DNA of 64,000 nt from Methylotenera sp. (GTDB taxonomy: Bacteria; Pseudomonadota; Gammaproteobacteria; Burkholderiales; Methylophilaceae). Below the pieces are notes generated by a model. It did not search any database, was not told where the DNA came from, and saw only the letters and a program-made list of their open reading frames with translations. Positions 34,725 through 37,675 of this stretch are shown here, piece by piece (within the stretch, counting starts at the first letter, position 1; every line of letters begins with the position of its first letter). The translations under genes and the position numbers were made by a program. The stretch lies in assembly GCA_013141495.1 (NCBI GenBank), contig JABFQV010000014.1, positions 38,724 through 102,723 of the forward strand, given 5' to 3'.

Positions 34725-34857
34725 TTTTGCATTTAAGCAGTTCATTGATACTGCGTTGCGCAAGCCTTGCCATACTAGTTGTATTGTCTTCGGCTTGCGC
34801 GCCTAGCCTCAATTTCCTGCTCAACGCAAAATGCCCTAACCAGCATTGAAAAAGAAC

Positions 34858-34880
34858 AAAACCCGCTTCGGCGGGTTTTT
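34858..34880. terminator. bidirectional rho-independent terminator shared by groEL and the convergent ATPase/DUF4276 operon
   Basis: AAACCCGC-ttcg-GCGGGTTT with flanking A and T runs. It sits 10 nt from the stop of the minus-strand gene at 34890. Confidence 0.8.
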
Positions 34881-34889
34881 CATGTATAC

Positions 34890-35459
34890 CTAAATAACGC
34901 AGATTCTTTCCCTAACATACTTATCGAAGGTGGAAAAAGACTGACACTTGAGAAGATTATCAAGAGAAGTAAGTTGTGCAATCTTTTTATTGTGAATCGT
35001 ATTTACATATCGCTTCTTACTAATTTTCCACACCATGGCCTCCAAATGCTCTTTGGGCGATGATACGCTTTCGCAATCGTGCATTTCTGATGGAGCCTTA
35101 GAAAGTGAGAACACCTGTTTTATTGCTTCGACATCCGTGAGAAGCCATGCCTCCATCTCTTCGATTGGGATAACAATCAGCGAGTTTGGATATTTCTCAG
35201 TAGAAACCTTTTCCATAAGTAATTTGCGAAGTTTTTTTTCATCGTTCCTGTCAAGATCGTGGAACACAATCACATGATCGCATCCGCTTTTAAATAGTGA
35301 TGACGCCCAACTATCACACTTATTTCTGAGTTTCCCGCAGCCATTTCCGGTGAATTTCTTAATAGAGAACTTATTTTTTTGCATATATTTGCAAAGAAAT
35401 TCTGTAATAATTTCAACATCGCTAACATCTTCAGCGATTATTCCGATTGTTTTAGTCAT
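34890..35459 (-). CDS. DUF4276-like small protein with TOPRIM-like acidic motifs (putative nuclease effector)
   Basis: 189 aa with IGIIAEDVSD (E10), HVIVFHDLDRND (D68, D70) and IPIEEMEAWLL (the EAW motif I recall as the DUF4276 hallmark). The start ATG lies inside the last codons of the upstream ATPase (ATGACTAA, 8-nt overlap). AT-rich. Confidence 0.65.
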   Translation of the reverse strand: MTKTIGIIAEDVSDVEIITEFLCKYMQKNKFSIKKFTGNGCGKLRNKCDSWASSLFKSGCDHVIVFHDLDRNDEKKLRKLLMEKVSTEKYPNSLIVIPIEEMEAWLLTDVEAIKQVFSLSKAPSEMHDCESVSSPKEHLEAMVWKISKKRYVNTIHNKKIAQLTSLDNLLKCQSFSTFDKYVRERICVI

Positions 35460-36669
35460 TTTCTAAATGCCCATGTTTCCAGAATTCGCCGAGGCTACCT
35501 TCATTTGAAAGGTAATCTTTCAATGCGGCAAGTTCTTTGCCATTAATATCCTTTTTAATATTAGTGACTGTTGTACCTTTTTCCTGTTCGCGACGAACTT
35601 TAAATACATTTTCAATCCCTAGTTTGTCAAGCACAGCATCTGAGTGTGTAGAAACGAATATCTGCTTATCCTTGGAATATATTCGTATCAGTTCAACTAT
35701 GCTTGACAGTAGACCATGGTGAACACATACCTCGGGCTCCTCTATCATAATCAATGAGCTCTTATCGGTAACTAAATAAAAAATCAAAGCCAATGTTTTA
35801 AATGTGCCCTCAGATAACTGGCTTGGAGACAATAGATTTTTAGAAATTTGGAAGCTTGGAACAACTAACAAATTCTTTTTTTCATTCTTTTTTACCTGTC
35901 CACCCGTTAAAACACTATAGTTTGACGAAGAAGTTTCTATTTCATTAAATTTAATCTCTTCAACCAATCCAATTCCGTTTGGCCCTACCAGTTCAATAAA
36001 CTCTTGATATGAGTCGCTATTTTTTCTATTTTCCTGATACATGTCATATAGGTATTTCTTATGCCCAGTAATAGAAATGCCAGTTCGTCTAGTATTGTCG
36101 CCTTCAACCTCAAAGGATATTGGGCAATTTGCGGGGTTAGTGAATTGCGACGCACTGTAATAACTAATTCCAACAATTTCTTGTATTGCCTGTCCCAAGA
36201 TAGATATGTGTTTTGACTCAACGCCATGACTTGTTAAGTACTCGTAAAGCCCTCTTGGCCTTACTCTTGATGGGACATCATCTCTATGTATATCTAGCAA
36301 TATCCAAGAAGGAATAGTTATGCGATCTTTCTTACCAGTAAAATCGTACATATACCAAGACTCTTCAGAATTAATAATTTCATCTTGGTTCTTCTCATTA
36401 GTAACTAGATTTAACTTAGCGGTGTGAATTAATTTTTTCCCGCCTATTTCGTACCATGTTTTTATCTCACTTGCAGAACTGAGAGGCTCATCCCAAATGT
36501 AATGCCGTGGTCGGTTAAAACATAACAATGGCAACAGTCTTAATGCTGATAATACGTTTGTTTTTCCACTGCCGTTCGGGCCAATTAAAGCCGTCAGATT
36601 TTGATGCGGCTCAAACACGGTGCTCACGCATGACCGATAATTCTTAATGGATATTTTACTAATACGCAT
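35452..36669 (-). CDS. ABC/SMC-like AAA_21-type ATPase (putative sensor/scaffold partner of DUF4276)
   Basis: 405 aa with Walker A GPNGSGKT (aa 30-37; nt 36559-36582), an ABC-signature-like QLSEGT (aa 284-289), Walker B-like SLIMIEEPE (aa 305-313) and an H-loop VSTHS (aa 339-343). About 240 aa are inserted between Walker A and the signature. No transmembrane partner. About 31% GC in my hand-counted sample (35881-35980). Confidence 0.75.
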   Translation of the reverse strand: MRISKISIKNYRSCVSTVFEPHQNLTALIGPNGSGKTNVLSALRLLPLLCFNRPRHYIWDEPLSSASEIKTWYEIGGKKLIHTAKLNLVTNEKNQDEIINSEESWYMYDFTGKKDRITIPSWILLDIHRDDVPSRVRPRGLYEYLTSHGVESKHISILGQAIQEIVGISYYSASQFTNPANCPISFEVEGDNTRRTGISITGHKKYLYDMYQENRKNSDSYQEFIELVGPNGIGLVEEIKFNEIETSSSNYSVLTGGQVKKNEKKNLLVVPSFQISKNLLSPSQLSEGTFKTLALIFYLVTDKSSLIMIEEPEVCVHHGLLSSIVELIRIYSKDKQIFVSTHSDAVLDKLGIENVFKVRREQEKGTTVTNIKKDINGKELAALKDYLSNEGSLGEFWKHGHLEND

Positions 36670-36787
36670 TTAGATCCTTTTAGGCGACGTCAAATCGCAA
36701 TTTTGTTCATATGTCACTAAAAATAAACGAGCCCTCGTATTATTTAATACGTGAGGCTATAAATACAAATATTGAATCACAAGCCAT

Positions 36788-36867
36788 GTAGGGTGGGTCT
36801 CTTGATGACCCACGCATTGTAATAGTATAGCTTATCACTTCCGCGTGGGGTTAAAACCCCACCCTAC
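36788..36867. repeat. REP doublet (REPIN-like): two inverted REP hairpins
   Basis: GTAGGGTGGGTCtcttgatGACCCACGC (36788-36815) and GCGTGGGGttaaaaCCCCACCCTAC (36843-36867) in inverted orientation, separated by 27 nt. The same architecture recurs at 40156-40230. Confidence 0.85.
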
Positions 36868-36876
36868 AAAAGCCAT

Positions 36877-37529
36877 GTAGGGTGGGCAACTGGTTGCCCA
36901 CGCGTAAAATATCCCGCACAATCTAACGATGTCACATTATCGTCGCGCCGACACCGCTGGAGCCACTTACTTCTTTACAGTCGTCACTTACCGTAGGCGT
37001 CCATTCCTGTGCGATGAGGATGTGCGTGATGCGTTAAAACAAGCGATTAATAAAGTACGCGAAAGACATCCTTTTACAATAGATGCTTGGGTTTTATTAC
37101 CCGACCACATTCACACCATTTGGACATTGCCACCTAACGATGCCAACTTTGCACTCCGTTGGCAATTGATTAAACGCTATGTGACGCAAAGTTGCGGCGC
37201 ACGCCTGCATAACCCGCAGTGGATGAATACATCCAAAGCCAAACATGGAGAATCCACATTATGGCAACGCCGTTATTGGGAGCATCAAATTAAAGATGAG
37301 TTGGATTATGCAAAACACATGAATTATTTGCATTACAATCCAGTGAAGCATCAATTGGTAAAACAAGTCCAAGATTGGCCTTACTCCACATTTCACCGCT
37401 ACGTTAAACAAGGCGTTTATGATGAAAATTGGGCAGTAGAAGTATTATTAGAACCATGTGATTTTGGCGATGAGTAATTGGAAAAATTAGGGATTAAGCA
37501 ACGCGTGGGCAACCAGTTGCCCACCCTAC
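36877..37529 (+). mobile_element. RAYT unit: REP-associated tyrosine transposase gene flanked by perfect 29-bp inverted REPs
   Basis: GTAGGGTGGGCAACTGGTTGCCCACGCGT (36877-36905) and its exact reverse complement (37501-37529). Each lies 23 nt from the ORF ends. Confidence 0.85.
36929..37477 (+). CDS. REP-associated tyrosine transposase (RAYT; IS200/IS605 TnpA-like Y1 HUH enzyme)
   Basis: 182 aa with YFFTVVTYRRRPFL, the HUH motif in LPDHIHTIW, WQRRYWEHQI and the catalytic Tyr region YLHYNPVKH. Confidence 0.88.
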   Translation: MSHYRRADTAGATYFFTVVTYRRRPFLCDEDVRDALKQAINKVRERHPFTIDAWVLLPDHIHTIWTLPPNDANFALRWQLIKRYVTQSCGARLHNPQWMNTSKAKHGESTLWQRRYWEHQIKDELDYAKHMNYLHYNPVKHQLVKQVQDWPYSTFHRYVKQGVYDENWAVEVLLEPCDFGDE

Positions 37530-37675
37530 TCATTTCCATTGTTTAGCTTCAGCATGAAAACAATCCAGTGCAAGCGGGTTTTGTTTTATCTATCATTCTC
37601 CGTCATAATTATGGTTTATGCCGCTTGCATCATTCGCATTAAAAGCATCCCCTTAAACAACGAAAGAAACACACA

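Follow-up and report, generated by a model that had tools for sequence, protein, structure and literature searches.

The window analysed here is a 64,000-nucleotide (nt) stretch of Methylotenera sp. DNA (assembly GCA_013141495.1, contig JABFQV010000014.1, positions 38,724 to 102,723 of the forward strand), and all coordinates below are positions within it. Between the genes for GroEL and an FKBP-type isomerase it carries a HEC-01-like cassette of two minus-strand genes, the first encoding an ABC-type ATPase and the second a DUF4276 protein. The cassette is real and intact and consists of the following features:

35452–36669, minus strand: gene A, encoding a 405-amino-acid (aa) soluble ABC-type ATPase, HEC-01A-like (open reading frame (ORF), Pfam, PADLOC, AlphaFold2 (AF2) model, Foldseek)
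34890–35459, minus strand: gene B, encoding a 189-aa DUF4276 protein, HEC-01B-like (ORF, Pfam, PADLOC, AF2 model, Foldseek, hhalign)
35452–35459, minus strand: the 8-nt overlap ATGACTAA, where the start of gene B lies within the last codons and the stop of gene A
36670–36763, minus strand: 5' leader with a putative promoter, travelling with the cassette (homology with the closest copy, L084)
34858–34879, no strand assigned: the hairpin AAAACCCGC-TTCG-GCGGGTTTT, the groEL intrinsic terminator (minus-strand terminator scan)

Gene A ends on the minus strand as ...GAA AAT GAC TAA, and the first codons of gene B, ATG ACT AAA, are out of frame relative to the ATPase codons; the overlap is therefore the 8-nt ATGACTAA, and the two overlapping minus-strand genes described in an initial annotation of this DNA are confirmed in coordinates and sequence. 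By this overlap the two genes are translationally coupled. An AAGGA ribosome-binding site lies ∼ 6–7 nt ahead of the ATPase ATG. No strong sigma-70 consensus was found upstream of the ATPase, and the promoter at 36670–36763 is for that reason only a putative one. The hairpin that follows gene B is also present 3' of groEL in two close relatives that lack the cassette (L087 and L089), and it probably acts in both directions, ending transcription of the convergent cassette as well.

Both products match known defence models. The ATPase has its best PADLOC matches in seven HEC-01A models (E 1.5e-27 to 7.7e-23, best 94.6 bits), and more than 20 HEC-01B models match the 189-aa protein (best 1.2e-16, 59.2 bits); these values come from a scan of the hidden Markov model (HMM) library without the PADLOC system-calling thresholds, and the best HEC-01B match spans 116 of the 189 residues. 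A formal PADLOC system call as HEC-01 is likely. The 189-aa protein is a bona fide DUF4276 member (Pfam, 55.8 bits against a gathering cut-off of 30.2), as had been proposed. HEC-01, or Hma-embedded candidate 01, was predicted as a defence candidate that pairs an ABC ATPase with a TOPRIM protein whose metal site is conserved (Payne et al., bioRxiv 10.1101/2024.01.29.577857; PADLOC-DB v2). Judged by these profile matches, the window pair is a stand-alone member of this published candidate family and forms no new class. The proposal that the pair belongs to the defence class thus holds, whereas its description as an uncharacterised pair does not: it was already in print as HEC-01, with mixed phenotype reports, knockouts of the related Mad3 and Mad4 exist, and DUF4276 had already been placed in Toprim.

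The linkage of the two genes extends far beyond this locus. Scanning one genome per species gave 80 DUF4276 loci from Proteobacteria, Bacteroidota, Acidobacteriota, Verrucomicrobiota, Planctomycetota, Chloroflexota, candidate phyla radiation (CPR) groups and one archaeal metagenome-assembled genome (MAG). Wherever the contig leaves space for it (76 of 76 loci), an ATPase homologue is the next gene upstream, on the same strand; contig ends truncate the other four. A gene overlap of 1–17 nt is kept in 65 of 75 loci. Across these 75 loci the overlap takes the 8-nt form ATGNNTAA/G in 34, the 4-nt form ATGA/GTGA in 17 and a 1-nt form in five. The pairwise distance matrices of the ATPase and the DUF4276 protein are correlated with a Mantel r of 0.81, a value reached by none of 999 permutations. 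By gene order, overlap and correlated divergence, the two genes form a pair with obligate linkage, coupled translation and joint evolution, and the expected co-occurrence of homologous pairs is borne out. In 33 other genomes, the 133 flanking ORFs fall into 197 Pfam families, of which the commonest, phage integrase, occurs three times.

At 50% identity and E up to 1e-3 the DUF4276 family falls into 1,409 clusters, nearly all of them stand-alone proteins of 185–200 aa. The stand-alone clade is abundant in environmental Proteobacteria and extends to CPR bacteria and an archaeal MAG. Because the HMM scores are moderate and the best HEC-01B match covers residues 71–186 only, the profile comparisons suggest that the window pair belongs to a divergent, mainly environmental HEC-01 subclade. 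The DUF4276 protein has no PHROG match. As a side observation, a Dehalococcoidia MAG (L029) and the archaeal MAG (L031, Nitrososphaeria) share an identical ATPase/DUF4276 junction, AGGGGGATTCGGGAATGGTTAA, reflecting either a very recent cross-domain transfer or a binning artefact.

The ATPase has Pfam matches to AAA_21 (2.7e-24) and AAA_15 (4.5e-18), with SMC_N also above threshold. Its Walker A motif is GPNGSGKT (residues 30–37, with G30, K36 and T37), its Q-loop Q175, its signature QLSEGT (284–289, with the core L285-S286-E287-G288), its Walker B and catalytic segment LIMIEEPE (306–313, catalytic E310-E311) and its H-loop STHS (340–343, H342); ∼ 245 aa separate Walker A from the signature. 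Among 67 homologues from many phyla, G30, N32, G35, K36, L285, S286, G288, T289, E310, E311 (0.99), E313, H317, H342 and S343 are invariant or nearly so. With these motifs, ATP binding and hydrolysis as well as head-to-head dimerisation are expected of the protein. The AF2 model (pLDDT, or predicted local distance difference test, 83.8) gives Foldseek matches in the range 1e-14 to 1e-10, among them Rad50 (4.7e-14), Septu PtuA (8eea, 3.9e-13), retron PtuA (∼ 1e-12), an OLD nuclease (6p74, 1.2e-10), RecN and SMC. The template modelling (TM) scores are just 0.4–0.5, and the ATPase is therefore without a close solved structure; its best PDB sequence match is PtuA at 4.5e-7, which covers the N-terminal 64 residues only. 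With the full motif set and the ABC head fold present in sequence and model, the upstream protein is a soluble ABC ATPase of the SMC/Rad50/OLD clade, in agreement with the initial annotation, whose motifs for both proteins lie where it placed them and whose numbering of K36, D68 and D70 is correct. The inserts are compact, without a long coiled coil of the SMC/JetC type, and no other effector domain was found by Pfam or in the model.

The C-terminus of the ATPase (35452–35520) attracts attention in its own right. The last ∼ 15 residues, NEGSLGE(F/Y)WKHG(D/H)LE, show strong conservation (G391, L393 and G394 at or close to 100%, W397 at 91%), and their codons overlap the ribosome-binding region of gene B. 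The conservation may mark a protein interface, a coupling signal or both.

The 189-aa protein carries the motifs IGIIAED (5–11), VFHDLD (65–70) and EEMEAW (100–105). Its AF2 model (pLDDT 94.4) has the topology β1(3–9)-α-β2(31–37)-α-β3(62–66)-α-β4(93–96), followed by a helical C-terminal half. E10 comes just behind strand 1 and D68xD70 behind strand 3 of the four-stranded α/β core, an arrangement that is the Toprim signature. In 76 homologues that are 32–67% identical to the window protein, E10, D14, G40, K47, D68, D70, P98, E101, E103, W105, D109 and K136 are conserved without exception, and we regard E10, D68, D70, E101, E103, D109, K47 and K136 as candidate catalytic residues. Cys41, Cys48, Cys60 and Cys172 are invariant in the close clade and 74–93% conserved family-wide. 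At that level of conservation they were rejected as an essential metal cluster; they may form a structural metal site or disulphide in part of the family.

Several comparisons point to a Toprim fold for this protein. In the viral structure database BFVD, the best match of the model is an RloB-like protein (E 1.4e-4, TM 0.56), followed by Toprim proteins of the primase and topoisomerase type (E 0.07–0.18), and the PADLOC model 'ATPase-Toprim_I-B' aligns to residues 7–169 (E 0.003). With a 196-sequence DUF4276 profile, hhalign aligned residues 7–70 with residues 24–84 of a C-terminal fragment of P2 Old (P = 0.038), a stretch that corresponds to ∼ 395–455 of full-length Old and lies within its Pfam TOPRIM domain (389–455). 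In this register E10 falls on an Old Glu, GxG on GKG and DLD on DCD. A shallow DUF4276 alignment gave no hhalign signal against the same C-terminal region, and a homologue search with the P2 Old C-terminus yielded five fragments, unusable for an OLD-TOPRIM alignment. Two papers place DUF4276 in Toprim from structure predictions, one of them Payne et al. (bioRxiv 10.1101/2024.01.29.577857), and one of the two describes RloB and DUF4276 together as new Toprim members. Two further similarities were noted. A profile search of the PDB returned a sub-threshold 26-residue match to 'ORF 131' (2x5h, E 0.12), and the strand-helix of residues 2–28 gave sub-threshold Pfam matches to PHA01746-like proteins in 27 of 33 family members (best 1.3e-5); both may reflect motif convergence.

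We think it probable that the cassette is a horizontally acquired HEC-01-type module in which an ABC ATPase of the kind found in OLD, PARIS, AbiL and MADS3-4 is paired with a TOPRIM-type protein, giving an ATPase-gated nuclease defence. Both genes would be expressed from one operon with coupled translation, and their products probably form a complex. The ATPase, with all catalytic and dimerisation motifs intact, would act as sensor or switch and the DUF4276 protein as effector, a putative Toprim-like metal-dependent phosphodiesterase (E10, D68xD70, E101/E103). When an invading phage or mobile element is sensed, the nuclease would be released or activated by ATP binding or hydrolysis and would cut nucleic acid, either DNA or tRNA, and so halt the infection, possibly at the cost of the cell. 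Gene structure, family, obligate linkage, coupling, co-evolution, active-site conservation, recent mobility and strain-specific presence are established by the present analysis and provide the starting point. For complex formation, nuclease activity, trigger, target or substrate, and an abortive outcome, we infer by analogy with PARIS, OLD/Gabija and MADS; this analogy, already drawn for PARIS and OLD by the initial annotation, is one that the literature itself makes (Payne et al.; the PARIS paper).

A number of observations weigh against this mechanism. The first group concerns the effector. Foldseek found no PDB match of the DUF4276 model below E 0.01, the weak matches being topoisomerase II (E 0.048) and chain A of the PARIS structure 8ux9 (E 0.064), a 306-residue chain of AriB size. 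A profile search for PDB sequence relatives of the 189-aa protein found none, and a Pfam scan of 33 DUF4276 family members with E values up to 5 gave no Toprim family, nor any match to DUF4435, RloB (PF13707) or PF20469. The alignment with P2 Old reaches just the P value given above. The TOPRIM assignment is thus likely on fold, motif register and literature, yet statistically insecure: of the TOPRIM fold claimed at the outset, topology, register and the RloB-like match stand, and a significant sequence-profile or PDB match does not. The second group concerns phenotype and context. The HEC-01 representative of Payne et al. (bioRxiv 10.1101/2024.01.29.577857) protected E. coli against none of the phages tested. 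In a later study, of cold-seep metagenomes, a HEC-01 representative picked at random is reported, without quantitative detail, to have protected E. coli B against one or more of T7, T5 and T4. Both phenotypes come from other HEC-01 representatives, outside the close clade of the window cassette. Homologues were found by tblastn in none of 50,697 phage or 72,556 plasmid records. The flanking genes in the 33 other genomes are defence-related just sporadically (PADLOC matches to DpdF, NERD+UvrD, PDC-S14, PsyrT, SoFic, PifA and DolB), and the window itself is no defence island, the neighbours being housekeeping genes. Payne et al. also report no enrichment near other defence genes for the majority of candidates of this kind.

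The failure to match any solved TOPRIM nuclease would be accommodated if the DUF4276 protein were a non-nuclease, a Toprim-like regulator or adaptor that binds metal or nucleotide, the effector then being the ATPase or a host factor. RecR is a Toprim-fold protein, and some proteins of this fold, such as RecR, are non-catalytic. Such a role would have to be squared with residues E10, D68xD70, E101, E103, K47 and K136 that are invariant across phyla, with motifs in register with the P2 Old TOPRIM catalytic residues and with an ATPase that has no other effector domain, and we hold it to be most unlikely.

The proposed ATPase-gated nuclease also has to be viewed in the light of how the cassette arrived. 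The host is a betaproteobacterium, and the cluster to which its GroES belongs has members named Methylotenera, Sulfuritalea and Undibacterium; its GroEL has no exact match on record. Close relatives, taken as contigs that encode an identical GroES (L085–L092), were compared across the interval between groEL and the FKBP gene fklB. The following features emerged:

34880–36781, no strand assigned: strain-specific low-GC cassette DNA (composition, blastn against relatives)
34871–34879, plus strand: 9-bp direct repeat GCGGGTTTT, left copy, forming the 3' arm of the groEL terminator hairpin
37574–37582, plus strand: right copy of the 9-bp direct repeat GCGGGTTTT (sequence comparison with empty sites)
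36782–37571, plus strand: a unit of repetitive extragenic palindromic (REP) sequences flanking a REP-associated tyrosine transposase (RAYT) gene, REP-RAYT-REP, a neighbour outside the two-gene system (Pfam Y1_Tnp, inverted repeats)

The interval is empty in L086, L087 and L089. It holds a diversity-generating retroelement (bAvd plus reverse transcriptase) in L085; in L088 and L091 a trypsin-like gene accompanies RAYT, and in L090 and L092 gene pairs without assigned function do so. A HEC-01-like cassette occurs at this site only in the window strain among the identical-GroES contigs compared. The unassigned cargo genes gave no Pfam or PADLOC match, and the sole PADLOC match among the alternative cargo is a weak, RT-protease-like one on the trypsin-like gene. 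Blastn homology with the empty sites of L087 and L089 ends at 34879 and restarts at 37572, while with the RAYT-bearing relatives L088, L090 and L091 it restarts at 36782; the cassette-specific DNA is therefore 34880–36781. Its GC content is 0.35–0.39 versus 0.42–0.50 in the flanks.

The groEL–FKBP interval (34725–37675) is thus a strain-variable hotspot. The genes that flank the cassette are groES/groEL, the RAYT Y1 transposase, the FKBP isomerase, a FadL-type porin and UvrD, and none of those adjoining it is a transport or membrane partner, as originally stated. A PADLOC scan of the 43 other ORFs of the window gave no further defence system, the matches being confined to DinG and PolA look-alikes. 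The alternative posed by the initial annotation, defence island or variable locus, is therefore settled for the second part only, and the objection that the pair sits in a conserved housekeeping context fails, because the groEL site is a strain-variable hotspot.

Of the neighbouring features, the GCGGGTTTT repeats bracket 2,694 bp (the cassette plus REP-RAYT-REP) that are missing from the empty-site relatives, and could be a target-site duplication or a trace of recombination at the hairpin. The Y1 transposase gene (36929–37477) lies between perfect 29-nt inverted REPs at 36877–36905 and 37501–37529; the REP core CCCACCCTACA occurs six times in the window versus 0.48 expected, and the REP-RAYT unit is common to relatives with other cargo. 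Separately, the empty-site relative L087 carries a RAYT unit of 90.7% identity elsewhere, at a position that follows FKBP and a hydrolase gene.

The cassette has its closest copy in a different organism (L084), with 90.9% nucleotide identity over window positions 34898–36763 (95% aa identity for the ATPase, 82% for the DUF4276 protein). There it is the last component of an element (L084, 1–8095) with an integrase, a hypothetical gene, an AlpA-type excisionase or regulator and a 923-aa DUF927 primase, an architecture that, by gene content, is satellite- or island-like. Homology between the copies begins ∼ 70–95 nt upstream of the ATPase ATG, the last ∼ 70 nt of which are nearly identical, and ends at the last codons of gene B. 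Both genes show a synonymous divergence (dS) of 0.31 between the copies; the ratio of non-synonymous to synonymous divergence (dN/dS) amounts to 0.07 in the ATPase and 0.29 in the DUF4276 protein. On these rates both genes are under purifying selection and were co-transferred. tRNA-linked integration was considered and rejected, there being no tRNA near the cassette or on L084. From the homology limits, the cassette is a recent horizontal acquisition and a self-contained 1.87-kb promoter-to-stop unit that moves between unrelated contexts.

Such mobility bears on a housekeeping role. The fold matches of the ATPase to Rad50, RecN and SMC heads, a weak RecF HMM similarity and the Toprim fold of RecR would all suit a DNA-repair pair of the RecF-RecR or Rad50 kind, in which an ABC ATPase works with a Toprim-fold partner. 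The RecF score is 35 bits against a cut-off of 172, however, and the cassette is missing at the same site in conspecific or near-conspecific genomes, has low GC, is patchily distributed across phyla among ever-changing neighbours and has a 91%-identical copy in a mobile island of another organism. Because the cassette is strain-specific, mobile and low in GC, the repair reading is strongly disfavoured, and we consider it extremely unlikely.

The L084 element raises a different question, whether the target is phage at all. As cargo of an integrase-AlpA-primase element, the cassette could act against plasmids or other mobile elements, or serve the selfish, addiction-like stabilisation of its carrier islands; the HEC-01 representative that was negative on a phage panel would fit, as would Wadjet, a plasmid-restricting system in which an ABC ATPase likewise occurs with a Toprim protein. 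The 405-aa ATPase, however, has compact inserts in place of the long coiled coil of SMC/JetC proteins, no integrase or replication genes accompany the cassette in the window, and a HEC-01 representative is reported in the cold-seep study to lower the plaquing of at least one lytic coliphage. We give this possibility little weight relative to an anti-phage, ATPase-gated nuclease.

Taken together, these results allow a broader reading, which we offer as speculative and rather improbable in its entirety. The stand-alone clade would be an autonomous ATPase-gated nuclease with a trigger and substrate unlike those of PARIS (tRNA) and of OLD/Gabija (DNA), and the groEL terminator-REP-RAYT site would be an undescribed exchange hotspot. 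At this site 2-kb promoter-to-stop cassettes (HEC-01-like, the trypsin-like gene, the unassigned pairs, the diversity-generating retroelement) may be swapped via REP/RAYT or via the terminator hairpin, with the 9-bp GCGGGTTTT duplication. The locus is in any case a natural experiment, with the 1.87-kb unit in one strain and missing at the identical site in close relatives, and together with the 91%-identical island copy it defines a minimal functional unit.

Among known systems, OLD and Gabija GajA share the ATPase class (PADLOC Old and GajA matches at 1e-20 to 1e-21), and the Glu and DxD of the DUF4276 protein line up with those of the P2 Old TOPRIM domain. In those systems, however, ATPase and TOPRIM are fused, whereas here they are two separate polypeptides; on the split genes and the lack of a Pfam match to OLD-like_TOPRIM (PF20469), which P2 Old itself matches at 1.2e-17 as a positive control, membership was rejected. 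PARIS shares the layout of a split ABC ATPase plus a small TOPRIM-type effector whose genes co-evolve (matching AriA and AriB trees, to be compared with the Mantel r of 0.81 here). AriA models match the window ATPase at 1.5e-23 and 6.7e-21, with the HEC-01A models scoring better, and the 189-aa protein has no match to DUF4435 or AriB in Pfam or PADLOC. The ATPase inserts also differ, and the tRNA-cleaving release mechanism is established for PARIS only. PARIS membership was rejected, the effector being DUF4276 and not DUF4435. PtuA of Septu and retrons is among the best structural matches of the ATPase, but its partner in Septu is the HNH nuclease PtuB in place of a DUF4276 protein, and Septu membership was likewise dismissed. 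RloB-like proteins, the restriction-linked ORFs of type I restriction-modification loci, provide the closest fold match of the DUF4276 model, yet they form a separate Pfam family (PF13707) with no sequence-level match here.

The MADS system of Pseudomonas aeruginosa contains, in Mad3-Mad4, an AAA_15/21-type ABC ATPase adjoining a DUF4276 protein. Defence is weakened when mad3 (ATPase) or mad4 (DUF4276) is deleted, and cells survive removal of the MADS methylase only if mad2 or mad3 goes with it. The PARIS paper groups MADS3-4 and AbiL with PARIS and OLD as ABC ATPase plus TOPRIM systems. MADS differs in being an eight-gene methylation-dependent system in which Mad6-8 are mandatory; none of these was found among the 43 other window ORFs (PADLOC) or the 10 nearest neighbours (Pfam). 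The NCBIfam scores are 71.1 bits for MAD3 against a cut-off of 420 and 20.8 bits for MAD4 against 160. Membership in MADS was rejected on these scores and the missing Mad6-8.

This relationship nevertheless suggests a further alternative, that the cassette is an orphaned accessory which works only as restriction arm of a methylation system and, alone, is inert or dependent on a partner encoded elsewhere. It would explain why HEC-01 was found embedded in Hma, why a stand-alone representative gave no protection, why mad3 and mad4 act inside an eight-gene methylation system, and the weak NCBIfam and PADLOC similarity to MAD3/MAD4. Yet no methyltransferase or other system gene adjoins the cassette, no neighbour recurs among the 197 Pfam families of the 33 other genomes, the two-gene unit moves alone between unrelated contexts with both genes under purifying selection, the MAD3/MAD4 scores fall far short of their cut-offs, and a HEC-01 representative cloned alone is reported as protective in the cold-seep study. 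We consider a dependence on methylation unlikely and favour a self-sufficient ATPase-gated nuclease, in keeping with a pair that moves and is selected alone, without a methylation system.

The closest relative remains HEC-01 itself, which shares the adjacent, co-directional order of an ABC ATPase (AAA_21/AAA_15) and then a ∼ 190-aa DUF4276/TOPRIM-like protein. As the pair belongs to this already catalogued family, the locus holds no new kind of system. The PDB search turned up no solved HEC-01 structure, and the phenotype reports on the family conflict; the cold-seep study finds it comparatively abundant among the candidate defence systems of environmental metagenomes. The window pair differs from HEC-01 as first described in lying outside any Hma or modification system, as a solitary insertion beside groEL, and to the family it adds a precise mobile unit, an empty-site comparison and a set of phylum-wide invariant residues.

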